Of a DNA stretch of 64,000 bases, positions 2,736 through 57,360 are shown in pieces; position 1 is the first letter of the stretch; each line of letters begins with the position of its first letter. The position numbers and the translations under genes are program-made. Below the pieces are notes generated by a model that worked only from the letters and a program-made list of their open reading frames with translations, searched no databases and had not been told where the DNA came from. The stretch is from Parcubacteria group bacterium LiPW_30 (lineage in GTDB: Bacteria; Patescibacteriota; Minisyncoccia; Phycocordibacterales; VMEP01). The stretch lies in NCBI GenBank assembly GCA_007375595.1, contig VMEP01000001.1, positions 557,089-621,088 of the forward strand, given 5' to 3'.

Positions 2736-2873
2736 TTGTGGATTATCTCACATGAAGAGATGTCGGGTCAATTAGAAATTGACTTTTATTATCTATATGT
2801 GAGGATATGTAGGTCGGTAAAGTTTTGCCGATAGTACACAACAACACGTCAACAGCAAAAAGGAGAACACGCC

Positions 2874-2975
2874 ATGAAAAAACTGAAACCCGGCATCATC
2901 ACCGCCAAGGTCGCTGACGAAGACGAAGACCATCCGATTGGTGTCCTGGCCATCGGCGCCGGATGTGACGACTGA
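2874..2975 (+). CDS. Small GC-rich ORF (33 aa, MKKLKPGIITAKVADEDEDHPIGVLAIGAGCDD)
   Basis: Strong SD (AAAGGAGAACACGCC-ATG). GC about 60% versus about 37% background. Followed by a hairpin terminator. Below the ORF-track length cutoff. Confidence 0.4.
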   Translation: MKKLKPGIITAKVADEDEDHPIGVLAIGAGCDD

Positions 2976-2989
2976 TTCGCGAGTCGCGC

Positions 2990-3030
2990 ACCCCCCCCAC
3001 CAATCTAACGAAAGGTGGGGGTAACTTTTT
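2990..3030 (+). terminator. Rho-independent terminator (CCCCCACC…GGTGGGGG + T-run)
   Basis: GC stem followed by TAACTTTTT. Confidence 0.5.
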
Positions 3031-3040
3031 CCCAAATTTT

Positions 3041-3087: not shown

Positions 3088-3153
3088 ACTAGTGAGCGTG
3101 GCGACGCGAGCTCGAGGAAATTTTCAGCAGAAAATTATCCGTGCTCTTAAGAC
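3088..3153. repeat. Copy of the dispersed MITE-like repeat family (core …GAGCTCGAGGAAATTTTCAGCAGAAAATTATCCGTG…), flanked by a direct CTTAAGA duplication
   Basis: Shares the AATTTTC-AGCA-GAAAATT hairpin and GCTCGCG/CACG flanks with the other copies listed below. CTTAAGA is present at both ends (3081-3087 and 3146-3152), which looks like a target-site duplication. Confidence 0.55.
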
Positions 3154-3220
3154 GAAAAGTGAAAAAATATAAATAAAGCCCTTGGATTAAGTTTGTAAGT
3201 CGTTATATAATATCTAGAAC

Positions 3221-8262: not shown

Positions 8263-8757
8263 ATGGAAAAACCAGCCTGGAAAGCGTGGGATGAATTTCT
8301 GATTGAGGCGTGGGAGGCAGATATGCACATGTTTGTCGCCGTGTTTAGATTCTTGGAGCCTTATGGTTTTCAATACGACCAAATAATCAACGGTGGTTTC
8401 ATCTCCATCTTCTCGGGAATTGGAGTTAATGGGAGATCTCCCAAAAACTTCTGCCATTTAGGTTTTCCAGTAAGAGCATTTTTCTACCATTTCTTCCCGG
8501 AGACAAACGAATTACTTTGGGAAGGAAAGAAGGATCAGGCCCTGAGGAAAATGCGCTCCCACAAAATTAGCGCCGAGACCAGGTTGCGAGACGACCGTGA
8601 GTTCGCAAGCCTGAAACGCGACAACAGGAGAAAAACATCGCAAGTCCTTCCATTAATCCAAGGGACAAACGCCATCGGCGTCCGGCAAGCGAGAAGATCT
8701 CTTTCCGACTGGGGCACCACAAAACCTCCGGGTCGTATGAGAAACAGGCGTATATAG
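8263..8757 (+). CDS. Hypothetical protein encoded by a GC-rich orphan ORF
   Basis: 164 aa. SD AAGGAGGA 7 nt upstream. GC about 48-50%. Terminator 14 nt downstream. The C-terminal half is Arg-rich and of low complexity, so coding status is uncertain. Confidence 0.4.
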   Translation: MEKPAWKAWDEFLIEAWEADMHMFVAVFRFLEPYGFQYDQIINGGFISIFSGIGVNGRSPKNFCHLGFPVRAFFYHFFPETNELLWEGKKDQALRKMRSHKISAETRLRDDREFASLKRDNRRKTSQVLPLIQGTNAIGVRQARRSLSDWGTTKPPGRMRNRRI

Positions 8758-8770
8758 TTCCAGTTACCAA

Positions 8771-8800
8771 AAACCCCGCTACTCTGGCGGGGTTTATTTT
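8771..8800 (+). terminator. Rho-independent terminator (CCCCGC-TACTCTG-GCGGGG + TTTATTTT)
   Basis: Seen in the sequence. Confidence 0.6.
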
Positions 8801-8834: not shown

Positions 8835-8863
8835 TTGACAGGATAATTTTTACGTGCTATTTT
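8835..8863 (+). promoter_or_regulatory. Sigma70-like promoter (TTGACA-17 nt-TATTTT)
   Basis: Consensus -35, 17-nt spacer and a TAnnnT -10. Drives the short GC-rich RNA candidate. Confidence 0.4.
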
Positions 8864-8869
8864 TGGTTG

Positions 8870-8969
8870 ATATCAGCTCCTTCGGAAGCAGAGAACCGAA
8901 GGCCTTCACCTCCCAATGCTGGTACACTTTGCCCCCGCCCTCCTCCCCTTTGGGCGCGGGGCTTTTTTT
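8870..8969 (+). ncRNA. ffs?: Putative ~100-nt small RNA, possibly a small SRP RNA (4.5S-like)
   Basis: Delimited by its own promoter and a terminator (GCCCCCGCCC…GGGCGCGGGGC + T7). Not coding. The segment CAGCUCC-UUCG-GAAGCAG resembles SRP RNA helix 8 (E. coli CAGGUCC-GGAA-GGAAGCAG). 5' AUCAGC can pair with the downstream GCUGGU. Confidence 0.35.
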
Positions 8970-8979
8970 ATTATTCTGC

Positions 8980-10187: not shown

Positions 10188-10502
10188 CTAGAAGTAGGCC
10201 ACTATGCACGTACGGGCTACGCGCTCGTCCGTGTAAACTTCCAGACTGTGCCAACAAGATACGTAATTGAAACCGTTCCAGCCGATGGGCCCCATTATCG
10301 CGCCCAAAACCCTGCTCGGCAACGAAGCGTCGCTTTTCTTGGTCGAGATGTAGGCTTCGGTGTGCATCATTGCCACTTCCACGACCGCAGGAGCCAGTAT
10401 CTTCGCCACCAACGCGTAAAAGTACGCGAGAAAAAGCAATGCAAAAATGAATGCCTTTTTCCCGTTCACTGACTTTTCCAAACGTAATTTCGGATACCTC
10501 AT
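10188..10502 (-). CDS. Small membrane protein from the GC-rich two-gene cassette
   Basis: 104 aa from MRYPKL… with SD AGGGAGAG. One or two TM helices. GC about 52%. Confidence 0.4.
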   Translation of the reverse strand: MRYPKLRLEKSVNGKKAFIFALLFLAYFYALVAKILAPAVVEVAMMHTEAYISTKKSDASLPSRVLGAIMGPIGWNGFNYVSCWHSLEVYTDERVARTCIVAYF

Positions 10503-10530
10503 GGAACTCTCCCTTGTTGATGGGGTTGGT

Positions 10531-10869
10531 TTAGCGGACGATGGTTGCAGCAAAAACCGCAGTCATCATCAACACCCAGACGACCATTATGATGCGCATA
10601 CGCCAATCACCGTTGTGAACAACCGCCAGCGAAGCGCTCATGTTGACCAAAATCATCAACGGCCAGGTTAATGTCCGCAGTGAATCAATGTTTTCGGCCG
10701 TCCACGCCATGTGCAAGGTCGGAATGAATGTCAACGGGCCCACGAGAACGAAACCCAAAAACACTTTCCCGATTTTTGTTTGCACAAACGGTAAGGTTGC
10801 CCTTGCGACTTTCTCGTTGATTGCATCCACCTTTCCCGGAATTGCCTTCACTATCTTTGGAACGTACAT
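10531..10869 (-). CDS. Membrane protein from the GC-rich two-gene cassette
   Basis: 112 aa with three predicted TM helices. Strong SD AGGGAGGATGG. GC about 52%. Confidence 0.5.
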   Translation of the reverse strand: MYVPKIVKAIPGKVDAINEKVARATLPFVQTKIGKVFLGFVLVGPLTFIPTLHMAWTAENIDSLRTLTWPLMILVNMSASLAVVHNGDWRMRIIMVVWVLMMTAVFAATIVR

Positions 10870-10943: not shown

Positions 10944-11729
10944 TTACCACAATGACGCTGTCCCCACGCTTTTTTTCTTCGGCATAACTTCTGTCACCGC
11001 CTCACGATATAAGCAGTAGTCACAGCTCTCACTTTCTTTTGGTGGCTCATCCAGCAATAAACATTTTTTAGCCCCAATAAGCGCTTCTTCTATCCAATCA
11101 TCTGAACCTTTATATGGAATAACCTTCACATCAAACTCAAGCTTGGCATCAAAAGCCTCCTTATCTGAAATACCATTGCAGTAAACGAAGTATCCCGTAT
11201 TTGAGACGATATGGTCGTTCTGACGAAGAAGCCATTGATACACTTCCATTTGACGCTTATATCCATCTTGCCACTCTGCATCTAAAGACACTTCCCCTTC
11301 TTTACTTGTCGCCTTATAATCAACAACCATAATTTCGCCAGATGGCGCTTCCCAAATATCATCCACCGCGCCAGTCACGATGAAGTTTGTTTTCTTATGT
11401 AAAAAACGCACCCCAACAAAATTGTTTCGCCAATCTTCAAGATTGTCATGCTTAAACGGCACAGCATCGATTTTATACTTCGCCATCAAAGGATGAGCCG
11501 AAGCCTTCGCTCGATAAATATCAAATTCTTTTTTGAGAAGTTTGTCGACAGCTGAGTTAAGAGAAAAAGGAAACCCTGGTGGCCTCCCTACACCCAATCT
11601 TCGATCCAAATAAAAACATCTAGGGCATTCCAAGAACAAATCTATCTTTGAACGGGAAAGGGCAAATGGTTCTGTGCTCTCTGGGCTAAATTTATTTTTT
11701 GTTCGGCGGGGATTGTAATACTGTGACAT
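10944..11729 (-). CDS. PD-(D/E)XK nuclease of the Cas4/RecB family with an Fe-S cluster
   Basis: 261 aa. N-terminal CPRC. MVVDYK matches the (D/E)xK motif. QMEVYQWLL matches the QhxxY motif. C-terminal CDYC. This is the Cas4/AddB-type nuclease domain. No CRISPR array is nearby. Confidence 0.6.
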   Translation of the reverse strand: MSQYYNPRRTKNKFSPESTEPFALSRSKIDLFLECPRCFYLDRRLGVGRPPGFPFSLNSAVDKLLKKEFDIYRAKASAHPLMAKYKIDAVPFKHDNLEDWRNNFVGVRFLHKKTNFIVTGAVDDIWEAPSGEIMVVDYKATSKEGEVSLDAEWQDGYKRQMEVYQWLLRQNDHIVSNTGYFVYCNGISDKEAFDAKLEFDVKVIPYKGSDDWIEEALIGAKKCLLLDEPPKESESCDYCLYREAVTEVMPKKKSVGTASLW

Positions 11730-12337: not shown

Positions 12338-12606
12338 TTTATCTTTAAAAACATTGCGCAGACCGACGCTCAATTGCGATAAGTGAAGTAATTGAGAGAC
12401 GGAGGCTGTCGAGCCGAGTCGGGTGAGAAAGCGAAGAATGAAGCTTTCGCAAGGTCGGACTGAGCGAAGGCGAAGGAGACGGGGTCGCGAGTTTTGCTAG
12501 CAAGCAAAAACCTGTGACCACGCAAATTTCTAGCAAGAAATTATGCGTGGCGCGAGCATAGTAAAAACTTAGCAAAGTTTTATGCGTGTTTTTAAAGGTA
12601 AAAACA
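12338..12606. repeat. Composite, longest copy of the MITE-like repeat family, bounded by CTTTAAAAACA…TGTTTTTAAAG inverted repeats
   Basis: Contains three hairpin modules (TTTTGCTAGCAAGCAAAA, AAATTTCTAGCAAGAAATT, AAAACTTAGCAAAGTTTT) plus the GC-rich module (GGAGGCTGTCGAGCCGAG…GGGGTCGCGAG) that is shared with copies at 42943 and 43388. Confidence 0.6.
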
Positions 12607-12620
12607 AAAAAAGATACATT

Positions 12621-12649
12621 GACAAATCTCTGTTTTCTGTTATACTCCA
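12621..12649 (+). promoter_or_regulatory. Sigma70-like promoter (TTGACA-16 nt-TATACT)
   Basis: Consensus hexamers. The -35 region forms a 10-bp inverted repeat with the start-codon region (GACAAATCTC / GAGATTTGTC). Confidence 0.4.
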
Positions 12650-12675
12650 AAAAGATCAACTAGTGGAGATTTGTC

Positions 12676-12930
12676 ATGGCTACCACCGATTTCCAAAAAG
12701 AAATTGCTGGAAAAGTTTTTGATCAAATGGCGAAAGAGCATCTGACTTCCTTCGACGAAAAGAGGTACAGTCAAATCCTCTATCCCCTCCTCACTGCGAA
12801 CGGTGCGGTATCAGAAAGTCGCCCGTATCACTGGAGAGCAATCAAACCACTGGTGGAAAAGAAATTCAAAAACCACCAGAGCCTTGTGAAGCAACACAAA
12901 CTTCGATTCGCCGAATCTTGGGCGAAGTAA
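12676..12930 (+). CDS. Hypothetical protein encoded by a GC-rich orphan ORF
   Basis: 84 aa. SD GGAG. Terminator at 12962-12993. Confidence 0.4.
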   Translation: MATTDFQKEIAGKVFDQMAKEHLTSFDEKRYSQILYPLLTANGAVSESRPYHWRAIKPLVEKKFKNHQSLVKQHKLRFAESWAK

Positions 12931-13068
12931 AGAGACTCATGATGTGCGTAATTGTGCAAACAGCGCCCAAATTATCAGGGCGCTTATTTTTTTGCCTAAT
13001 TTTTATATACACAAAAACAAGGCCACCCAATAAGGGTGGCGAATGGAACGGTGCTGTTCATGTAGGTT

Positions 13069-13221
13069 TTACCAGCTCTCGAAGGAGTCGGTTTCGACCA
13101 TGGTGGCGAGCTCTTGCGAATTGATTTCGAGTTGGTCCACCTCATCTTCTCCGAGAAGGCCGGCGATGAATTCATCGGCCGCCAGGGTAAACTTGCCCCA
13201 CAGGTTGCTCAAAAATTTCAT
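13069..13221 (-). CDS. Small acidic ORF (50 aa, MKFLSNLWGKFTLAADEFIAGLLGEDEVDQLEINSQELATMVETDSFESW)
   Basis: SD GGAGGA 9 nt upstream. GC about 55%. Terminator hairpin GCCACCC-TTATT-GGGTGGC + T-run at 13011-13040. Confidence 0.35.
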   Translation of the reverse strand: MKFLSNLWGKFTLAADEFIAGLLGEDEVDQLEINSQELATMVETDSFESW

Positions 13222-13337
13222 GGCTATTTTCCTCCGTTTTTGTTGTACAGGATTGCTTTATTCACAGTACCACAGGAATTGAGTGATGGGAAGGGGGGAT
13301 ACTAAGTGTGTCTGTTTTTTGTGGGGGAGGTGTTTTT

Positions 13338-13979
13338 TTATTCTTTTTTTAATAACTTAATAATTTCAACAATCTCTTTATATCTACTATCTTCATCACT
13401 CCAATTTAAAAAATGGCCGCACCTCTTTGCTTTTTCTATTTCCCTTTCAACATTTTCTTTTTTAAAATCATCAGTAAAATCAACAGCCTGACCATCTTTA
13501 GAAATTCTCACATAAAACGAATTCTGTTTTATTTTATCCTCTTTCCCGTTTAATACTGACTTAGCCTCTTCGTCATATTCTGGAGTTTCAACCCAATCCC
13601 AATTTGATGATTCCCATCTACGTAAAACTTCATGAACATATATGTTAATTGCATCAGAAACCACCCTCGGTCTACTAAGTAGCGTTTTACTTTTAATCAT
13701 TTCCAAAAATTCATCCGTACTTGGGTTAAGGAACTCAAGAATAATAACCATTAATTGTTTAGAAACATGATGATTAAGAGAACTTCTTACCTCATTTGTC
13801 CATTTTAATGCACCATTTTTTACTAATTTTAATATAAATCCTTTCGCAAATTCTTCTTGTGCCAATTTTGCTAATCCATATGCTGAGGCATATCTGTCTA
13901 GGTCAAATAAATACTCAGAATCTTCTAAAAGCCTGTTTCCATTCTTTTCACAAACTTTTATTGACTGAGATAATTTCAT
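13338..13979 (-). CDS. HEPN-like protein, a putative RNase effector partner of the upstream ATPase
   Basis: 213 aa. Contains EVRSSLNHH, an Rx4H(H) motif, within a predicted helical N-terminal domain of ~100 aa. Lies 18 nt downstream of the ATPase gene on the same strand. Confidence 0.45.
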   Translation of the reverse strand: MKLSQSIKVCEKNGNRLLEDSEYLFDLDRYASAYGLAKLAQEEFAKGFILKLVKNGALKWTNEVRSSLNHHVSKQLMVIILEFLNPSTDEFLEMIKSKTLLSRPRVVSDAINIYVHEVLRRWESSNWDWVETPEYDEEAKSVLNGKEDKIKQNSFYVRISKDGQAVDFTDDFKKENVEREIEKAKRCGHFLNWSDEDSRYKEIVEIIKLLKKE

Positions 13980-13997
13980 AATAATAACAAAATCAGA

Positions 13998-16307
13998 TTA
14001 ATCAGTCGCCTTATTGATTATTTTAAAATGAGCTGGGGAAATTGCTTCCATCATCTCAAATAATTCTCTAACTACTTTTTTTGTTTCCGGCACAAGTGCT
14101 GGGTCAAACCCAGAACCAGTAATATGTGATTGATTGTTAGTGAACTTATATATTGCATCCAATTTTTGCTCATCAAACTTATCTTTTTTTAATTCTTCTA
14201 TCTTCTGATACGGTGCTCTGCCGTTCGGCACAGCAAACATTAAAAAGGTGTCCCAAACCTTTCTTGCAATATTTGGTATAAAATACGCCTTTTCTATTGA
14301 ATCGTCCTGTTCATCCCTCATTTGTTTTAATATTTTAAACAAATAGTGGTATTCGCTTTCGTAATCACATAGCTCTTTATCCATTTTCGTAATATACGCA
14401 GACCGTATATTATTCACAAAATTATTTTTAATCATATAGTACTCAGTATTTTTCTTGTTTTCACTGCTACCCTTTCTCCAGTTCATTAGCAATTTTAGGA
14501 AATCAAAACTATGGGTGAGTATAAATACTTGACCACCATCCTTTGCAGCATTTTTTAAAAAACTAAATGCTTGATATAGAGAGTTGGAATCAAGGCTTGA
14601 GATTGGATCATCCACAACAATAATTCCGTCGCTTCCCCTAAAATCCTGATCGCCAAGATGCACGACAAAATAAATAAAAGCTATGGCAGTTTTTTCCCCT
14701 TCACTCAAAAAAGAAGCCGGCTTATCCCCACGCATAATATGATACCCGGTAACAATTTCTTTTTCTTCTCCATTACCATCAGGTTCTTTTTCTATCTGGG
14801 GAACAAAAATTAACTCCTGATGTCCTAGAAATGTCGAGAGTTTCTTATTTATGTCCTCACATGCCTTATGTTTAGATGAAATCTGTGCCATATTCTCAGC
14901 AATACTCTTCCGAATGTCGGAAATTTCTGTTTCCAATAATTTAATATCTTCGTCAAGTTTTAAAATATCGGTATCAAGTTTCCTTACTTCATCAAAAATT
15001 GTACTTAAATAATGCAATTTTAGTCTCTGGATTGCTTCTTTCTTTACGTCCTCAAAATCGGAAGTTGTTTTATTATGAACCGCAATAATCTGATTTAATT
15101 CGTTTATACGCACAAAGAAGTCTTCAATATCAGGTTTTGCTTTCAAAACAAGTGTTTCTGTTGTCTTGTTTTTTTTAGACTTCAATTCTGCAATAAGTTT
15201 TGTAATGTTCGCGAGAATTTGTTGTTTCGCGGATTCAAAATTTGAACCTTTGGTATCAAAAGAATCTTGTAGGTCAGTATAAAACCTCGCCCTATCTGGA
15301 GCCTGCAGAGATTGAATGACTGGATAAATCTTTTCCAGATTATCTACCAATACATCTATGTCATCTTTCAACTTCTTATCCGCTTCATTAAAGTGTCGGG
15401 CTAACTGTTCAATACGGGCAACGGGAATTTTCTGTAGACAATATTCGCAATTATCAGATATATGTTTTTTGTGTAAATGGAATCCTTGCTCTACCCATTC
15501 CGATATATCCTCATTCAAAGCAAATCTAGAAACGATTTCCGACTCAACAGTTTTAAATAGAAGTGTCTTTGCCCTATCGTCTATTAATTTCAAAAGGTTT
15601 AAAATTTCAAATTCTTCGCCAACATCTTCATTTTTTATTTTTTTGACGGTAAGCAGGTCAATTATAGTTAAGGAATCTTGCTTTGCGGAAAGTGAGTATC
15701 TCTCAAGGTCATCAACCGACAATTCCGCTTTTGTCGTTAGAGTACTGAAGCCCATTTCTGCTTGCGGTTTTCTATAATCACGCAACGCATTTCCACCAAT
15801 CGCCGCACCAATTGTCTTTGCAATTTCAGTAAATTTTCCATCACGCTCTGTTAATTTTCGCCTCTTATCTCTTGAGTATCCCATATGCAAGAAAATCTTT
15901 CCCTTGTTTACGACATCAATCTGGTCGCCATCAAGTAATTTCTTATCATTTTCAATTTTTTCTATCAAATCCTTATTTTCCTCACCAAGTAAGACAGAGA
16001 TTGAATTTGCCCGGCTTTCAAGAATTTTTACATTATTCTGTATATAATCTTGATTGAATACACGAATTTTTTTTGGAAATACTTCGCCTTGTTTGTATTT
16101 AACCCCTTTCTCATCTTCAATCTCATATTCCAAATCTTCAACAGAAACTCCCGCTATTCCATCAAACAAACGTGATAAAGTTGTTTTTCCGCTTCCGTTC
16201 CAACCATAAACAAGATTAAACTGCTTAAAAACTGGGAGGGTAGAGTCCCGCGTGTAGTTATAAAAGACTAGCCCGAGATTTTTTATTCTGTTAATTTTAG
16301 AAATCAT
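13998..16307 (-). CDS. AAA_13/RloC-like ABC-type ATPase with a coiled-coil zinc hook
   Basis: 769 aa. The N-terminus ISKINRIKNLGLVF…FNLVYGWNGSGKTT contains Walker A. A long coiled coil carries CEYC (a CxxC zinc hook) near residue 285. LSEGEK is the ABC signature. IIVVDDPISSLD is Walker B/D-loop. ILTHS is the H-loop. The ~190-aa C-terminal domain has no known function. Confidence 0.8.
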   Translation of the reverse strand: MISKINRIKNLGLVFYNYTRDSTLPVFKQFNLVYGWNGSGKTTLSRLFDGIAGVSVEDLEYEIEDEKGVKYKQGEVFPKKIRVFNQDYIQNNVKILESRANSISVLLGEENKDLIEKIENDKKLLDGDQIDVVNKGKIFLHMGYSRDKRRKLTERDGKFTEIAKTIGAAIGGNALRDYRKPQAEMGFSTLTTKAELSVDDLERYSLSAKQDSLTIIDLLTVKKIKNEDVGEEFEILNLLKLIDDRAKTLLFKTVESEIVSRFALNEDISEWVEQGFHLHKKHISDNCEYCLQKIPVARIEQLARHFNEADKKLKDDIDVLVDNLEKIYPVIQSLQAPDRARFYTDLQDSFDTKGSNFESAKQQILANITKLIAELKSKKNKTTETLVLKAKPDIEDFFVRINELNQIIAVHNKTTSDFEDVKKEAIQRLKLHYLSTIFDEVRKLDTDILKLDEDIKLLETEISDIRKSIAENMAQISSKHKACEDINKKLSTFLGHQELIFVPQIEKEPDGNGEEKEIVTGYHIMRGDKPASFLSEGEKTAIAFIYFVVHLGDQDFRGSDGIIVVDDPISSLDSNSLYQAFSFLKNAAKDGGQVFILTHSFDFLKLLMNWRKGSSENKKNTEYYMIKNNFVNNIRSAYITKMDKELCDYESEYHYLFKILKQMRDEQDDSIEKAYFIPNIARKVWDTFLMFAVPNGRAPYQKIEELKKDKFDEQKLDAIYKFTNNQSHITGSGFDPALVPETKKVVRELFEMMEAISPAHFKIINKATD

Positions 16308-16946: not shown

Positions 16947-17138
16947 TCAACGGGGAAAAATGATTTCCCAGATGTCGCTGTAGGTTGAGAAAATCTTGTC
17001 GATGATTCCCGATCCATCCCCGTAAATACCGAGAATTGCTAAAACCGCAACAGTGACGAGAAGGATAAACAGAATCTCAATACTTCTGGTTTCCTTGCGA
17101 ATATCGGTTTCCTCACCGGGATACATGTCTGTTTCCAT
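16947..17138 (-). CDS. Small single-TM membrane protein
   Basis: 63 aa. Strong SD GGAGGAAAG-ATG. Bidirectional terminator at 16910-16940. Confidence 0.45.
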   Translation of the reverse strand: METDMYPGEETDIRKETRSIEILFILLVTVAVLAILGIYGDGSGIIDKIFSTYSDIWEIIFPR

Positions 17139-24496: not shown

Positions 24497-24570
24497 AATT
24501 GGCCAATTATACCGTTTTTATAAAAAAAGTGAAAATCATAATGATTTTTTATTGTATTCTTTACTTTTTC

Positions 24571-24640
24571 TTTTAAAAAACACGATAAAATTCTGCTGAA
24601 TTTTTCTCTACTCGCCTCGTCAGGCTCCGTAAGGTTTTTC
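24571..24640. repeat. Copy of the MITE-like repeat family (TTTTAAAAAACACGATAAAATTCTGCTGAATTTTT…GCTCCGTAAGG)
   Basis: Near-identical over ~40 bp to the copy at 50270. Confidence 0.55.
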
Positions 24641-30418: not shown

Positions 30419-30459
30419 TTGACAAAACATGATAAATGCTGTAGTATTGCTACAGCATT
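30419..30459 (+). promoter_or_regulatory. Sigma70-like promoter (TTGACA-17 nt-TAGTAT) with a perfect 10-bp-arm palindrome (AATGCTGTAG-TATTG-CTACAGCATT) overlapping the -10
   Basis: Palindrome spans 30435-30459. Drives the GC-rich ORF at 30504. Confidence 0.5.
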
Positions 30460-30503: not shown

Positions 30504-30998
30504 ATGAGCATGAGTCCCGTTTTAATTGCTGGCAATCACCGTAGCAGTGTAGTGCCAGCAACATTTCTTTTGCTGATTTTTGCGCTCGGCTTGGCGACCA
30601 TGCACGAAAATCGCACGTTGATTCAATTGGCGCTTGTCCTAATTTTTGGGGCATCATGGAGTAGCGCGCTGTGGGGACGAGTTGGAGGAATCCGCTCCGC
30701 GCAAGAAGAACTCAGCCATCCGATACCCCTCATTGGAAATTATGACAATCTTCACCCGTTCATGAAAGTCGGGGGACGGTACGAGGTTCTCGCCAAAATC
30801 GACAACGTTGAGGGATACGATGGTCCATTTTTCATGCTTCGTTCCTATAGCCCAAGCGTAGTCCTGAGGAAAAGGCCGATTTTCTACGCTTGGGCAACAA
30901 AAAACGAATGTCTCCCCCACTCCTTTCGGGTGATCAAAGGATCGTTCGACGACGGGGAAAAAATCGAAACGTCCTTCCTCTTCAAGGAAACCACGTAG
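30504..30998 (+). CDS. Hypothetical membrane protein encoded by a GC-rich orphan ORF
   Basis: 164 aa. Two N-terminal TM helices plus a soluble domain. SD GGAG. GC about 52%. Terminator at 31019-31052. Confidence 0.5.
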   Translation: MSMSPVLIAGNHRSSVVPATFLLLIFALGLATMHENRTLIQLALVLIFGASWSSALWGRVGGIRSAQEELSHPIPLIGNYDNLHPFMKVGGRYEVLAKIDNVEGYDGPFFMLRSYSPSVVLRKRPIFYAWATKNECLPHSFRVIKGSFDDGEKIETSFLFKETT

Positions 30999-31071
30999 AG
31001 GCATCAAGCCCCAGTACAAAAGCCGACCACTCTCTCGTGGCCGGCTTTTTTCATTTCCCTATTTATTCATT

Positions 31072-32730: not shown

Positions 32731-32786
32731 GTTGAGCTGTAGTATAAGGTATTTTTTAAGGAATTTAAAGTTTTTTTACATTTATC

Positions 32787-32858
32787 TTTAAAAACGCGCA
32801 TAAAACTTTGCTAAGTTTTTGCTATGCTCGTGCCGTCGCACTACGCAATGTTTTTAAA
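32787..32858. repeat. Copy of the MITE-like repeat family (CTTTAAAAACGCGCATAAAACTTTGCTAAGTTTTTGCTATGCTCG…GCAATGTTTTTAAA)
   Basis: TIR TTTAAAAAC. Near-identical to the 12545-12606 segment in reverse complement. Confidence 0.6.
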
Positions 32859-34211: not shown

Positions 34212-34251
34212 ATTTACCTAAAAATTTTATATATCTTTTTTTAAAATACCC

Positions 34252-34324
34252 TTAAAAAACACGTATAATTTTCTGCTGAAAATTTACTATGCTCGCGCCG
34301 GTCGCGCTCCGCAATGTTTTTTAA
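34252..34324. repeat. Copy of the MITE-like repeat family with a perfect 10-bp TIR (TTAAAAAACA…TGTTTTTTAA)
   Basis: Core CACGTATAATTTTCTGCTGAAAATTTACTATGCTCGCGCC. Confidence 0.6.
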
Positions 34325-49179: not shown

Positions 49180-49326
49180 CTAAACCATTGACTCCACCAT
49201 CTTGGCTAGCACGACCGCAACGGGCCTGCTGGCAATCAGAACGAAGTGCTCTGACGGAGTTTCGCCTTTCTTCGCGCGAATTGCGTAAAGCTTAAACGTT
49301 GCAAATCCGACAGCACATAACTTCAT
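49180..49326 (-). CDS. Small GC-rich ORF (48 aa, MKLCAVGFATFKLYAIRAKKGETPSEHFVLIASRPVAVVLAKMVESMV), translationally coupled to the upstream gene
   Basis: Its ATG overlaps the TGA of the upstream gene (ATGA). GC about 52%. Followed by a terminator. Confidence 0.35.
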   Translation of the reverse strand: MKLCAVGFATFKLYAIRAKKGETPSEHFVLIASRPVAVVLAKMVESMV

Positions 49327-49598
49327 GAAAAAAGTTTTGACATTTTCTTTTTTTTATTTAGCTGAAGGTTTGGTATTGCCCGCTGATCTCGAGTTACTTC
49401 ACAAGGGGCTCCGTATTTTCGATAATATTGCCCGCAGCCAAAATCATTTATAGCCTGGCAAACCGTCAGAAAGCCGAAAAAAACCGAAACGGCAAACCAA
49501 ACAAAGGTCAAAAACCTTACCCTCGACCAAGCCACTACAATCGCAACCGCAAACAAAACAACAGTTATCGAACCCAAAAGACCTGTAGTGAAATACAT
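49323..49598 (-). CDS. Small two-TM membrane protein
   Basis: 91 aa from MYFTTGLLGSITVVLFAV… with SD GGGAGGAG. The longer ORF-track N-terminal extension has no RBS. Confidence 0.5.
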   Translation of the reverse strand: MYFTTGLLGSITVVLFAVAIVVAWSRVRFLTFVWFAVSVFFGFLTVCQAINDFGCGQYYRKYGAPCEVTRDQRAIPNLQLNKKKKMSKLFS

Positions 49599-50150: not shown

Positions 50151-50269
50151 TACTTAAATGTATACAAAAAACTCCGCATAATAGCGGAGTTTTTTGTTGC
50201 CCAAATATCATAAAATGTCTCACTCTAAACTTAAGTGTTTAATTAAAATATTCGTGTTTATTTTTTTGC

Positions 50270-50354
50270 TTTTGCTGATAAAAAACACGATAAAATTCTG
50301 CTGAATTTTTCTATACTCGCGCCAAGCGCTCCGTAATGTTTTTTATCAGCAAAA
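50270..50354. repeat. Copy of the MITE-like repeat family with a perfect 18-bp TIR (TTTTGCTGATAAAAAACA…TGTTTTTTATCAGCAAAA)
   Basis: Core CACGATAAAATTCTGCTGAATTTTTCTATACTCGCGCC. Confidence 0.65.
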
Positions 50355-53272: not shown

Positions 53273-54496
53273 TTATTTTTTAAAAAACTCTTGCGCTTTT
53301 TTAACACTTGATACTAAAGCATCAATATCTTCCTTTGTATTATAAAGGTAAATACTTGCTCGCACAGTTGCTGGAACCCCAAGTGTTTTTACGAATGGTA
53401 GCGCACAGTGATGCCCACCACGCACAGCAACATTATCACGTCCCAAAAACTCAATCACATCATGAGGATGTGCTCCTTCAACTGTAAAAGAAACAATTCC
53501 AACATTTTTTTCAACGTCTTGTTCTGCAAAAATCTTAACTCCATCAATTTCCTTAAGTTTCTCTATTGTATAAGAAGTTAATTCTTCGGTATGTTTTTTT
53601 ATATTTTCAAGACCAACTTCAGTTAGGTATTTCACCGCTTCAGCTATCCCAATAGCTCCAGAAATATTCGGCGTTCCTGCTTCAAACTTTTCTGGAGCGG
53701 AAACAAACTCTGCTTTTTCTAAGTCTACGTCAGTGACAATTCCACCACCAAAAAACGACGGATTTAGTTTTTCGCCAAGTTCACCATTTATATAAAGCGC
53801 GCCAATTCCTGTTGGTCCACACATTTTGTGTCCAGAGAAAAACATCGCGTCACAATCTAGCTCTTTTACAGAAACCGGAATATGCCCCATGGCTGCCGTA
53901 GCATCAACAACAACCAATGCCCCCATCTTACGTACAATTTGAGATATGTATGAGACGTCGTTAATCGCTCCTGTTACATTGCTCGCAAGCGTAATCCCAA
54001 CAATCTTCGTTCTCTCGGTTATAAGCGATTCCACAGATTTATAGTCAAGTCTGTAATTTTCGTCCACATTTATATATTTTAAATTAAGTTTTTTTCGTCT
54101 TGCGAGTTCTTGTAATGGCAGAAGCATTGCGTGATGTTCCATTATCGAAACAACGATTTCATCTCCTTCTTTTAAATCTAGTGATTGTTCAAAAGAATAC
54201 GCGAGCATATTGACTGATGCTGTTGCGCCGGCAGTGAAAACAATTTCATTTTGATTAGCACCAACAAACCCAGCAACAGTCGCCCTTGCGCCTTCATATG
54301 ATTCGCTCGCTTTTTCGCTCAAGGCATATGCGCCACGATGAACATTGCTTCTAAAGTTTCTATAATATTCGTCCATTGCAGAAATTACACATTCTGGAGT
54401 TTGAGAAGAAGCCGCCGAATCTAGGTAGTGCAAAGTAGCCTCTTTTGAGGCTTTAAAAATTGGAAAATCTGCCTTTATTTTCTTTATATCAAACAT
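53273..54496 (-). CDS. sufS: Cysteine desulfurase (SufS family)
   Basis: Class V aminotransferase. PLP-lysine region FFSGHKMCGPTGIGALY. 407 aa. Confidence 0.9.
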   Translation of the reverse strand: MFDIKKIKADFPIFKASKEATLHYLDSAASSQTPECVISAMDEYYRNFRSNVHRGAYALSEKASESYEGARATVAGFVGANQNEIVFTAGATASVNMLAYSFEQSLDLKEGDEIVVSIMEHHAMLLPLQELARRKKLNLKYINVDENYRLDYKSVESLITERTKIVGITLASNVTGAINDVSYISQIVRKMGALVVVDATAAMGHIPVSVKELDCDAMFFSGHKMCGPTGIGALYINGELGEKLNPSFFGGGIVTDVDLEKAEFVSAPEKFEAGTPNISGAIGIAEAVKYLTEVGLENIKKHTEELTSYTIEKLKEIDGVKIFAEQDVEKNVGIVSFTVEGAHPHDVIEFLGRDNVAVRGGHHCALPFVKTLGVPATVRASIYLYNTKEDIDALVSSVKKAQEFFKK

Positions 54497-54602
54497 AAAT
54501 ATCGCGCAATTATGACATATTTTAATGTTATTGACAACTTACCTGTATTGCTGTTAAATCAAGGAAGTTACTTAGTCCCGTCAACCAAACAAAGGAATTC
54601 TC

Positions 54603-54821
54603 GTGATCAAACATTTCGTCGCATACGTTATCAGCCGCCAGGACCAAAAGCCGTATCCCGTTAACAGGATAATCTACCGTAAATCGCCAATTGTCATCAA
54701 CTCAATGGCGGATGTCCAAAAGCTGGAAAAGGATCTGTACAAAACCCACTTCAGCGGCCACACGAAATATGCTGGCGACGGGTGCACCCTCGTGTCCATC
54801 CAGAGGCTGCCAATTCAGTAA
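54603..54821 (+). CDS. Hypothetical protein from a GC-rich orphan ORF inserted antisense within the suf operon (GTG start)
   Basis: 72 aa. GC about 50%. Terminator GCCCC-ACCC-GGGGC + T-run at 54845-54867. Confidence 0.4.
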   Translation: MIKHFVAYVISRQDQKPYPVNRIIYRKSPIVINSMADVQKLEKDLYKTHFSGHTKYAGDGCTLVSIQRLPIQ

Positions 54822-54947
54822 AAGCTGTCTCAACGGTCAAACCAAAAGCCCCACCCGGGGCTTTTTATTTCAACGAGAGAGGAGTGCGTTGACGAGTAAT
54901 CTCGTACACAGCATCCGAACGACGTTGAATCAAATGGTAAATACCAT

Positions 54948-55631
54948 TTATATTTCTAAAAATCCGTCTACTAAAAGTTTATAGGAATTTTCCTCATCAA
55001 GTCCGCGCGACATCGGGTAAAACAATTCATCGCGAGAAATATCTTTTATAGAAAGTGAATGAGAACAACGAACATCATTACTTGCAATATCAAGAGATGG
55101 GATTGCGTCAACCCGAGCTTCTTCAGATAAAATTAAAAACGAAGCTGATTCCTCTCCTTTTGCCTCTATCTCTTTACCCATCGCGATATCGCTTCTGTAA
55201 ATTACATGCGCCTTATCCTTAAGCACTCCACGCACATCAATTTTAGAAATAGTGTGTGATGCTTCGTGATAAATCTTGTGATATATATCAACCTCTGATT
55301 CACCTACAAAATCGTAAGAGCTCGTTATTGAAGCTTTGGCGCCACGACCGGCTAAAATAATGTGAATATCATTTTTCCCTACAACCTGACTCTTAGAAGA
55401 TTCAACATATTCAAAGGTCGCTCCTTCACCAACATAAACAATAAGAAGTTTTGATTGAGATAAATTATTTTCTATTTTTTTTGTTTCATTTGGCGCGACT
55501 TCAATTACTTCGCCTCCCTTTGCAATAATACCCAAAAACTCCTCCGAAAAAGAAGATGCTATTTTAAGTCCGTATTTGAAAGCATTCGGCTCAACATAAG
55601 TATTTAAAATTATTTTAGTATTGTTTTTCAT
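54948..55631 (-). CDS. sufD: SufD-like Fe-S assembly protein (short form)
   Basis: 227 aa. SufBD-family beta-helix region (…IHIILAGRGAKASI…). Confidence 0.7.
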   Translation of the reverse strand: MKNNTKIILNTYVEPNAFKYGLKIASSFSEEFLGIIAKGGEVIEVAPNETKKIENNLSQSKLLIVYVGEGATFEYVESSKSQVVGKNDIHIILAGRGAKASITSSYDFVGESEVDIYHKIYHEASHTISKIDVRGVLKDKAHVIYRSDIAMGKEIEAKGEESASFLILSEEARVDAIPSLDIASNDVRCSHSLSIKDISRDELFYPMSRGLDEENSYKLLVDGFLEI

Positions 55632-55636
55632 ATTGC

Positions 55637-56986
55637 TTAACCAACACTTCCCTCCATCTCAAGTTCAATCAACTTATTAAGCTCAATCGCGTATTCAAGT
55701 GGCATAGCCTTAACAATAGGCTCCAAAAACCCTCCAACAATAAGACGTTCTGCTTCTCTTTCGGAAAAACCACGTGAACGTAGGTAAAATACTTCATCGT
55801 CGCCAAGTCGCCCAACTTTTGCTTCATGAGAAATATTAACTCTTTTATTGTCGTTCTTCGTTGATGGGTATGTATTCGAAACTGATTTATCATCCAAAAT
55901 TAATGCATCACAAACAACAGACGACACCGCGCCTGTTGCGCGCTTCCCTATTTGTACAAATCCGCGATAAGTAGAGATACCGCCATCTTTAGAAACTGAT
56001 TTAGAACGAATCGTAGAAACAGTGTCCGGCGCCAAGTGTAGTGCTTTTGCCCCTGTGTCTTGATTCTGCCCCTCGCCGGCAAGTACGATTCCCAAACTAT
56101 CTGCTTTTGCTCTTGCCCCCAAAAGAACAGACGATGGATAAAGCATTGTCACACATGAACCCATGTTTCCATTAACCCACTGCATTTCTCCGTCTTCATA
56201 GACCATCGCTTTTTTGGTGTTTAGGTTATAGGTGTTGCGTGACCAATTTTCAATACTTAAATATTTTACTTTCGCCCCTTTCATAACAAAAACTTCCACA
56301 CAACCAGCATGAAGCGACGATGATGTGTATCGTGGAGCAGAACACCCTTCGATGTATTCAATCTCTGAACCTTCGTCGGCGATAATTAACGTGTGTTCAA
56401 ACTGACCAGCGGATGGACGGTTCATTCTAAAATACGCCTGCAAAGGCAAGCCAACTTTTACTCCTTTAGGAACATAAATAAAAGTGCCACCGCTCCAAAC
56501 AGCACCATGAAGCATCGTAAACTTGTGATCAGAAGATGGAACACAGTCGGTCATAAAATATTTTTCAACAAGCTCTGGATATTTTTGCACCGCCACATCC
56601 ATATTCTCAAAAATTACCCCTTTATCAGCAAGTGACTTTTGGAGATTGTGATAAACAATCCCTGAATCATACTGAGCGCCCACGCCACCTAAATATTCGC
56701 GTTCAGCTTTCGGAATACCGAGCTTTTCAAAAGTATCGGTTATTTCTTTAGGTAGTTCTTTCCAGTCAGTAGTTTCCTCAACAGAAGGATCAATATAATA
56801 AACAAGATCGTCTAAATTGAGCCCTGATAGCGATGGCCCCCAATTTGGGATAAGTGTCTCTTTCCACAGAGAAAAAGCCTCTAGGCGCTTTTTTAGCATC
56901 CAAGAGGGCTCATTTTTACTCTCTGAAATATGACGCACAAGCGTTTCAGAAAGTCCCTTATTGACTAACTTCTCATCTATTGACAT
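55637..56986 (-). CDS. sufB: Fe-S cluster assembly protein SufB
   Basis: 449 aa, canonical SufB sequence. Confidence 0.9.
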   Translation of the reverse strand: MSIDEKLVNKGLSETLVRHISESKNEPSWMLKKRLEAFSLWKETLIPNWGPSLSGLNLDDLVYYIDPSVEETTDWKELPKEITDTFEKLGIPKAEREYLGGVGAQYDSGIVYHNLQKSLADKGVIFENMDVAVQKYPELVEKYFMTDCVPSSDHKFTMLHGAVWSGGTFIYVPKGVKVGLPLQAYFRMNRPSAGQFEHTLIIADEGSEIEYIEGCSAPRYTSSSLHAGCVEVFVMKGAKVKYLSIENWSRNTYNLNTKKAMVYEDGEMQWVNGNMGSCVTMLYPSSVLLGARAKADSLGIVLAGEGQNQDTGAKALHLAPDTVSTIRSKSVSKDGGISTYRGFVQIGKRATGAVSSVVCDALILDDKSVSNTYPSTKNDNKRVNISHEAKVGRLGDDEVFYLRSRGFSEREAERLIVGGFLEPIVKAMPLEYAIELNKLIELEMEGSVG

Positions 56987-57062
56987 TGCGACAAATTATA
57001 TTGTATTATCACGCCAGTTGCAAATTTGATTTAACCCAAACAAAAAGAGGAGGAGAAATATC

Positions 57063-57305
57063 GTGAGTACTGATTGTACTGAAGAAAACGCACTGAAGGG
57101 CAACGAGGAATTCGTCGCCTTTCTCCACGAACACGCGCGCAAGGAAAAAATTCCTGCAACCTGCGACAAGCCATGGCTCGCCAATGTCTGGCGAAACAAC
57201 AGGGGTGTTTTCACAAGCCTCTTCTTTCTGCACACAGGAAAAGCTATTTTTATTCCGCAAGTCTACTCATTCTTTCAACAAGCCGCCGAGTCGTACAAGG
57301 GCTAG
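57063..57305 (+). CDS. Hypothetical protein encoded by a GC-rich orphan ORF (GTG start)
   Basis: 80 aa. SD AGGAGGAG 8 nt before GTG. Terminator GCCCCGC-ATCAC-GCGGGGC at 57325-57347. Confidence 0.4.
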   Translation: MSTDCTEENALKGNEEFVAFLHEHARKEKIPATCDKPWLANVWRNNRGVFTSLFFLHTGKAIFIPQVYSFFQQAAESYKG

Positions 57306-57360
57306 CCTTTCCTTATCGACAAAAGCCCCGCATCACGCGGGGCTTTTCTAATTTTTCAGA

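Follow-up and report, generated by a model that had tools for sequence, protein, structure and literature searches.

The DNA analysed here, a stretch of 64,000 nucleotides that we call the window, belongs to the 0.68-Mb chromosome of Parcubacteria group bacterium LiPW_30, a groundwater bacterium of the Candidate Phyla Radiation (CPR, or Patescibacteria), and corresponds to positions 557,089 to 621,088 of contig VMEP01000001.1. It contains a suf gene cluster that reads on the minus strand as rpoD, sufB, sufD, sufS, sufU, sufC and sufT, and into which two small genes are set on the plus strand: ORF80 (57063-57305) between rpoD and sufB, and ORF72 (54603-54821) between sufD and sufS. ORF72 encodes a basic protein of 72 amino acids and is one of a dozen short, GC-rich open reading frames (ORFs) that a preliminary description of the window had singled out as scattered orphans. 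The others are ORF33 (2874-2975), ORF164b (8263-8757), ORF84 (12676-12930), ORF164 (30504-30998), ORF189 (40253-40822) and ORF59 (43629-43808) on the plus strand, and ORF104 (10188-10502), ORF112 (10531-10869), ORF50 (13069-13221) and ORF48 (49180-49326) on the minus strand. Coordinates, frames and stops of all 12 are as that description gave them, and so are the two GTG starts, those of ORF72 and ORF80; the "membrane pair" it placed at 10188-10869 is also present, with the correction that ORF104 starts at the ATG at 10502, giving 104 amino acids, and not at the TTG at 10553. A thirteenth ORF of the same kind, encoding a GC-rich small membrane protein (ORF63, 16947-17138, minus strand), had been missed.

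The comparison genomes comprise L002 and L090 (both from the same metagenome-assembled genome, MAG), L086 (from a groundwater metagenome), L173 and L178, the last about 93% identical to the window at the nucleotide level; overall, nucleotide identity to these sister genomes is about 85-93%. The closest species-level genome carries the label of an uncultured Saccharibacteria MAG, and one Logan contig matches the window at 100% over 9.2 kb. A more distant Patescibacterium, L003, whose SufS is 59% identical, was used for the suf comparison, and 80 metagenome loci fetched around recA proved too distant for the orphans to be carried.

ORF72 runs antisense to its flanking genes sufD (54948-55631) and sufS (53273-54496). 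It is preceded by a Shine-Dalgarno (SD) motif, AAAGGA (54591-54596), and by a promoter-like site on the plus strand (TTGACA-17-TTAAAT, 54531-54559, with TTGACA at 54531-54536) that stands back to back with the promoter-like site of sufS (TTGTCA-17-CATAAT with a TG motif, minus strand, 54509-54537; conserved in L002). The -10 hexamer of ORF72 lacks the consensus A2, so the promoter scan did not list the site and we read it from the sequence. Downstream, a hairpin at 54844-54870 (AAAAGCCCC/GGGGCTTTT) has the appearance of a bidirectional terminator common to ORF72 on the plus strand and sufBD on the minus strand, and its pairing is preserved in L002 by compensatory changes (GCCCC...GGGGC versus GCCTCCC...GGGAGGC). 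Directly after the sufD stop lies an 82-nt dispersed element (54862-54943), likewise conserved in L002, with an inverted copy at 42028-42109 (82% match); this second copy falls inside a stretch of 103 nt that neither L086 nor L090 has, and the element therefore behaves like a small mobile insertion of the type of miniature inverted-repeat transposable elements.

In L003, sufD and sufS are only 21 nt apart, and ORF72 is absent from every other suf locus fetched, which indicates that the 451-nt ORF72 cassette is an insertion in the lineage of the window and L002. The preliminary description had read ORF72 as interrupting an otherwise contiguous operon, and the junction in L003 is of the ancestral type that this reading calls for. 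The L002 ortholog has the same length, GTG start and stop, and its protein is 55.6% identical (nonsynonymous divergence dN 0.38, synonymous divergence dS 1.49, dN/dS 0.26), next to a SufS that is 95% identical. The 106 nt upstream of the gene are 92% identical between the two (97/106) and the downstream side 87%, whereas the ORF itself reaches only 62.6% nucleotide identity, and its dS of 1.49 compares with 0.26-0.41 in the flanks. This points to hyper-divergence limited to the cassette, or to allelic replacement. With its terminator and the separate, nearly leaderless promoter of sufS, the cassette would divide the suf cluster into two units, sufBD and sufSUCT. Only 12 nt separate the end of the predicted sufS -10 from its ATG, which leaves room for no more than a very short leader. 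For sufB the distance from the predicted -10 hexamer to the ATG is 8 nt, neither gene has an SD (56984-57024; 54496-54537), and hence both suf units may be leaderless or nearly so.

The arrangement recurs. ORF80 repeats it upstream of sufB, and in L003 a different antisense ORF of 83 amino acids lies between sufS and sufU (L003 2899-3150, minus strand) with a G+C content at third codon positions (GC3) of 0.60 against 0.44-0.48 in its flanks, so that the phenomenon recurs in the clade. The suf cluster evidently accumulates insertions repeatedly. L003 also carries a methyltransferase gene between sufU and sufC.

The composition of the orphans sets them apart from the genes around them. All 12 listed ORFs have a GC3 of 0.51-0.71 (ORF72, 0.67), compared with 0.323 +/- 0.043 in a baseline of 58 other, core genes of which the highest reaches 0.44 (z = 4.3-8.9; Mann-Whitney p = 3e-8), and their overall GC is 45.5-55.9%, against a core-gene mean of 38.6% and 39.3% for the window as a whole. 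The outlier status that had been suspected thus bears out, and the background of about 37% given beforehand was close. The excess is mainly one of third positions (C3 0.33 versus 0.15, G3 0.25 versus 0.17), where the orphans stand about 30 points above the genome, and the boundaries between orphan islands and flanks are sharp. Codon bias of the type seen in highly expressed genes, i.e. translational selection, was considered and rejected as the cause: ribosomal protein L21 and an RRM protein favour C only modestly at two-fold sites and use G very little at four-fold sites, whereas both C and G abound in the orphans.

For 10 of the 12 listed ORFs (ORF33, ORF164b, ORF112, ORF104, ORF84, ORF50, ORF164, ORF189, ORF72 and ORF80) we found positional orthologs in sister genomes, and nine orphans, ORF63 included, have pairwise dN/dS values of 0.05-0.43. 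Against L178, protein identity and dN/dS are 69.5% and 0.20 for ORF164b (dS 1.04; the ortholog has 179 amino acids), 84% and 0.30 for ORF84, 70% and 0.24 for ORF50, and 68% and 0.22 for ORF63 (GC3 0.50/0.56). ORF80 is 77.5% identical to its L002 counterpart (dN/dS 0.19), ORF189 82.5% and 73.9% identical to those of L086 and L090 (dN/dS about 0.2), ORF104 89% identical to that of L173 (dN/dS 0.43), and ORF112 87% and 98% identical to those of L173 and L178 (dN/dS 0.13 and 0.05; GC3 0.63-0.65). Core genes in the same comparisons have 88-100% protein identity, dN of 0.002-0.08 and dN/dS mostly of 0.01-0.1, the formyltransferase being the outlier among them (76% identity, dN 0.16). With dN of 0.05-0.38 against 0.002-0.08 in flanking genes, the orphans typically evolve 5-40 times faster than their neighbours; the exception is ORF112, which is core-like against L178 (dN 0.012). 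When the observed substitutions were placed at random, the amino acid identity of ORF72 was matched in none of 20000 trials (p < 5e-5), and for ORF80 and ORF50 the same test of coding gave p = 0.004 and p = 0.015, respectively. As judged from these alignments, the flagged ORFs are real, lineage-restricted and fast-evolving protein-coding genes, and the purifying selection that appears to act on them is relaxed but real. The weakest member is ORF48, a putative gene read from the sequence only: it has no comparator among the sister genomes, and its protein has no match in the protein collection searched.

These comparisons also bear on two accounts in which the ORFs are not genes. One could suppose that a GC-rich noncoding insert contains few stop codons and is open by chance; indeed, several islands have more than one open frame (the 282-aa ORF antisense to ORF189, for example, and the stretches 2793-3035 and 13043-13282), and two GC-rich stretches, 12345-12659 and 43084-43434, are repeat or att-like DNA and probably not genes. 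Yet dN/dS lies well under 1, random substitution is rejected, SD sites, promoters and terminators are correctly placed, and in ORF189 the annotated frame alone stays open in all five relatives. The antisense ORF over ORF189 is broken in those relatives and was rejected as an overlapping gene for that reason. We therefore consider chance openness very improbable. Alternatively, the islands might specify structured noncoding or dual-function RNAs in which the ORFs are incidental. Their sizes are those of small RNAs, each with promoter and terminator of its own, the fold z-score is about -2 for ORF84, ORF189 and ORF59, and an island without an ORF at 8866-8972 resembles a small RNA (z = -3.0). 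Set against this are a mean fold z of -0.7 (+0.3 for ORF72), searches of Rfam at gathering thresholds and at E <= 1 that returned only two tRNAs, strong SD motifs properly spaced from the starts, and substitutions that spare frame, length, start, stop and amino acids; this account of the islands is hardly credible. For the same reasons of folding, with no Rfam match, RNA structure does not fit as the cause of the high GC3 either.

Expression signals can be seen for nearly all orphans, and most show a sigma70-like promoter, a strong SD motif at the right distance from the start and an intrinsic terminator, as the preliminary description had reported for SD and terminator. Both a promoter and an intrinsic terminator (hairpin and T-run) were found for ORF72, ORF80, ORF84, ORF164 and ORF164b, whose transcription and termination in vivo would follow from these predictions; for ORF50, SD and terminator were identified and a promoter was not. 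The orphan promoters rank among the best consensus matches in each stretch scanned, and the downstream hairpins are simple terminators of 5-11 bp with T-runs. Four orphans are antisense, with a shared terminator on one side and a back-to-back promoter on the other. An all-against-all tblastx comparison of the ORF-bearing islands revealed no mutual similarity, and the 12 ORFs have zero matches in Pfam, NCBIfam, PHROGs and PADLOC. Hence they are mutually unrelated single-gene (or two-gene) cassettes outside known families, in agreement with what had been proposed, and the alternative proposal of a family of antitoxin-like or regulatory proteins finds neither a shared family, a toxin partner nor a PADLOC or Pfam match.

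Where, then, do the cassettes come from? The clearest indication is ORF59, a truncated gene corresponding to the first 59 residues of the 170-aa protein P0143, whose gene adjoins a PrlF/YhaV module on the 56% GC contig L181. The DNA of ORF59 is 78% identical to that gene over 159 nt, and on these alignments it is the only orphan with direct transfer across lineages. The P0143 gene is GC-richer than the window genome and AT-richer than its own contig, as expected from a promiscuous gene pool of intermediate GC; being an outlier on L181, it appears to be a shared mobile gene and not a host gene. In the window, ORF59 adjoins att-like copies of the 3' end of tRNA-Asn at an integration hotspot (43039-43470; partial copies at about 43158-43180, 43277-43290 and 43452-43468), and these copies are footprints of past integrations. 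At the same tRNA-Asn, L086 carries a GC-richer integrative element (L086 12571-20600; about 47% GC overall, 52% in its left part) with a large serine recombinase, an HTH (helix-turn-helix) excisionase-like gene, a HATPase protein, an HNH protein and an Eco57I-like methylase. The genes called in this element have GC of 0.40-0.55 and GC3 of 0.45-0.69, and the relative synonymous codon usage of the orphans correlates with that of the element (r = 0.58) and not with that of core genes (r = -0.12).

One way to read this is that the window genome recently acquired single genes from a high-GC partner or host by horizontal gene transfer (HGT). The contrast in composition with its sharp boundaries, the match of ORF59 on a 56% GC contig and the presence or absence of ORF104 among close relatives all speak for such transfers. 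The preliminary description had inferred horizontal acquisition, possibly from a high-GC partner, and had named conserved orthologs at the same loci in all relatives as what would tell against it; among the close relatives such orthologs, with the same GC3, are exactly what we find for 10 of the 12. ORF189 keeps its synteny down to a protein identity of 42-44%, orphan GC is about 50% and not the 60-70% of typical high-GC hosts, and the ORF59-like gene is itself AT-richer than its contig. Remote-homology searches covered ORF72 and ORF189 and found no donor for either in 1.8-5.8 billion proteins. For the other ten ORFs the check covered plasmid and phage sequences and clusters at 90% identity; when all 13 orphans were concatenated and compared by tblastn with the plasmids and phages, nothing matched, and scans of viral contigs with ORF72, ORF84 and ORF164b gave no real match. 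Horizontal acquisition therefore stands for ORF59 and draws support from the codon usage, while recent acquisition from such a partner is quite unlikely.

We favour instead, at a probability of about 0.6, that the orphans are real genes, confined to a single narrow lineage of Patescibacteria, in moron-like cassettes, with an old origin in a mobile pool and mostly vertical inheritance since. Each would be an autonomous cassette (promoter, SD, small ORF, terminator) in a spacer between housekeeping genes, a chromosomal equivalent of the phage "moron". The cassettes may have reached an ancestor of the clade out of a pool of promiscuous mobile genes whose GC is intermediate (about 50%), and would since have been passed on mostly vertically, their proteins diverging roughly 5-40 times faster than those of neighbours, with occasional loss (ORF104), truncation (ORF59; ORF164 in L090) and duplication (ORF80 in L002), and probably with cassette-limited allelic replacement of ORF72 and ORF164. 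At the once-tight sufD-sufS junction, the ORF72 cassette would now supply the bidirectional terminator of sufBD.

Several observations weigh against this reading. Apart from ORF59, the searches above gave no donor or mobile-element homolog for the orphans, and the cassettes are flanked neither by target-site duplications nor by terminal repeats; the promoters and terminators are consensus matches only, and expression is predicted. Most of all, the GC3 does not decay. Spacers at a distance from the orphans have a GC of 32%, which means that neutral pressure drives towards A and T, and a simple model of foreign DNA being ameliorated predicts that GC3 should fall with time. Instead, orthologs of the orphans retain a GC3 of 0.55-0.70 across dS of 0.3-1.5, ORF189 homologs at 42-44% amino acid identity, i.e. 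at saturating divergence, still have about 0.55, and polarised third-position changes in ORF189 (23 from G or C to A or T versus 14 in the other direction) are nearer to equilibrium than to amelioration.

These same data suggest that the high GC3 might be actively maintained, by selection on mRNA or codons or by repeated conversion, limited to the cassette, from a GC-richer reservoir, an account to which we give a minor but real share of our belief. Its stability in a genome with 32% GC intergenic DNA, the near balance of changes in ORF189, the parallel 83-aa antisense ORF in L003 and dS values discordant in both directions (1.49 in ORF72 against 0.26-0.41 in its flanks; 0.11 in ORF104 against 1.66 next door) are all consistent with it. 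On the other hand, ordinary translational selection, judged by the codon pattern of L21 and the RRM protein, does not fit the orphans, there is no excess of RNA structure, no reservoir copy was found among viral contigs, plasmids or phages, and the sharp boundaries speak against biased gene conversion, which would spread into the flanks and which we regard as unlikely. In an extension of this account, the genes may have arisen locally, even de novo, in already transcribed spacers between a symmetric promoter and a bidirectional terminator. The four antisense orphans placed in just this way are in its favour; but the 451 nt at the suf junction must have had some source, since the ancestral spacer is 21 nt. 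One may tentatively picture a class of small genes held by a cassette-limited process at a compositional equilibrium of its own (GC3 about 0.6 versus 0.3 in the core, among spacers of 32% GC), and, at a similarly low level of confidence, kept there either by gene conversion recurring from a mobile reservoir that is GC-richer and unseen, or by selection on mRNA or DNA, with expression signals conserved while the ORFs turn over. The high GC3 would be kept either by selection or by repeated cassette replacement, with no preference here for one of the two.

Morons are extra transcription units in lambdoid prophages, a concept due to Juhala and Hendrix. Like them, the orphans are single genes that, on sequence-level evidence, carry a promoter and a factor-independent terminator of their own, and they are set between genes that stand next to each other in relatives (sufD and sufS 21 nt apart in L003; ORF104 absent from L178), with a base composition unlike that of the flanks (GC3 0.51-0.71 versus 0.32 +/- 0.04) and dispensable-looking cargo. 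Unlike them, they lie between housekeeping genes (suf, rpoD, recA, def-fmt), match no PHROG, phage or viral contig, and are retained at the same loci across sister species. Classical bacterial ORFans of the type described by Daubin and Ochman are AT-richer than the resident genome. The orphans share with these their short length, restricted distribution, fast evolution under purifying selection and lack of detectable homologs; in contrast, their third positions exceed those of the genome by about 30 points of GC, and persistently so over saturating synonymous divergence. In common with integrative elements at tRNA genes, ORF59 adjoins a tRNA-Asn with repeated 3'-end copies, and the L086 element at the same tRNA has codon usage like that of the orphans, whereas the other orphans are isolated single genes without integrase, att sites or flanking repeats. 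Small size, the very acidic ORF50, which follows an AbiV-like HEPN gene, and the basic ORF72 recall type II antitoxins and small regulators, but the orphans lack a partner toxin gene, a shared fold or family and any match in PADLOC, Pfam or NCBIfam. They also differ from integron gene cassettes in having their own promoters and, downstream, simple terminators instead of attC. The orphans are therefore best described as ORFans or morons that sit in a CPR chromosome and whose compositional polarity is both inverted and persistent, a pattern that we did not find described in the literature searched.

In the minimal genomes of the CPR, most lineage-specific genes have yet to be characterised. A screen by GC3 picks out fast-evolving, cassette-like small genes, which are the likeliest mediators of interactions with hosts or phages, and the suf cluster offers a concrete case in which a cassette splits an essential operon into two transcription units. 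The failure of GC3 to decay is a small evolutionary puzzle that touches on the question of what sets the composition of reduced genomes. As to what the orphans do, accessory functions are the most plausible, for example those of proteins at the surface or in the membrane, or of small binding proteins of basic or acidic character. A word-indexed search found no homolog of ORF72. Sequence searches of the PDB gave no match, the AlphaFold2 models made are poor (predicted local distance difference test scores, pLDDT, of 50 and 64), and Foldseek against the PDB gave no significant match; the low-confidence model of ORF72 is of a small basic beta-beta-alpha-beta protein. It is conceivable that ORF72 acts at the promoter region it shares with sufS.

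ORF80, of 80 amino acids, has a predicted promoter at 56980-57009 (TTGACA-18-TATTAT, 11/12 matches) and an 11-bp terminator at 57321-57347. In L002 its cassette is tandemly duplicated (L002 2767-3502), the second copy being 54% identical in protein, and for this reason the rpoD-sufB spacer measures 854 nt there versus 374 nt in the window. ORF189, of 189 amino acids, lies downstream of def-fmt with an SD (AGGAGA) and a terminator (40846-40872). It has five close homologs at 74-100% identity, all with GC3 of 0.55-0.62; an exhaustive profile search found only three clusters among 1.84 billion representatives, all syntenic, and the position def-fmt-X-ppiB is kept where the protein is only 42-44% identical. 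ORF164, by its sequence a membrane or surface protein, has a promoter at 30419-30447 and a terminator at 31018-31049, and its neighbours on the opposite strand encode a class-II aminoacyl-tRNA synthetase (Pfam tRNA-synt_2b, HGTP_anticodon) and an M50 peptidase. Its flanks, including promoter and terminator, are 90-92% identical in nucleotides to L086, whereas the protein is only 34% identical to that of a 153-aa gene of L086; in L090 the gene is cut to 85 amino acids.

ORF104, a predicted membrane protein, is absent from L178, where 318 nt are replaced by 68 nt. Its dS of 0.11 against L173 and the dS of 1.66 of the adjoining PD-(D/E)XK nuclease gene (10944-11729) are discordant, which implies a mosaic history with recombination among close lineages at the locus. 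Its partner ORF112 is a small protein with about three predicted transmembrane segments. ORF33, of 33 amino acids, has an SD (AAGGAGA) and a C-rich terminator, and in L178 it has a 52-aa version that shares the N-terminus MK(K)LKPGIITA and a C-terminal LAIGAG motif. ORF164b lies between rplU and recA, on the opposite strand to these, with an SD (AAGGAGG) and a terminator at 8771-8795. ORF84 has a promoter at 12619-12646 (TTGACA-16-TATACT with TG, 11/12), an SD (GGAGA) and a terminator at about 12958-12997. Its promoter and start codon are bracketed by a perfect 11-nt inverted repeat, 12620-12630 and 12666-12676 (TGACAAATCTC / GAGATTTGTCA), which could be an operator. ORF50, an acidic protein of 50 amino acids, lies downstream of the AbiV-like gene, with an SD (GGAGGA) and a terminator at 13040-13022. 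ORF59 ends before a terminator at about 43821-43876. ORF48, of 48 amino acids, has a terminator at 49128-49105, and its ATG shares bases, as ATGA, with the stop codon of an ORF for a small membrane protein (49323-49598).

Some other features lie near the orphans. A candidate small RNA at 8835-8972 has a promoter (TTGACA-17-TATTTT, with TG), two hairpins in a transcript of about 107 nt, and a terminator (fold z = -3.0), and contains C-rich CCUCC/CCUCCUCCCC stretches that look like anti-SD sequences; in L178 its promoter and terminator are conserved, and its body is diverged and shorter. The AbiV-like HEPN gene (GC3 0.21) and a 769-aa gene form a variable island at 13338-16307, for which unrelated genes stand in between ORF50 and tRNA-Glu in L178. 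A family of GC-rich repeats (GGAGGCTGxCGAGCCGAGxCGGG ... CTGTGACC) at 12380-12520, 42929-43004 and 43375-43450 accounts for the "ORFs" at 12345-12659 and 43084-43434, which are thus probably not genes. Finally, an intergenic repeat, 60-70 nt long and with a core like AAATTTTCAGCAGAAAATTATCCGTG, is dispersed over the 64 kb in at least six copies and in both orientations (3115-3177, 12549-12619, 24557-24615, 32771-32834, 34229-34299 and 50262-50320).

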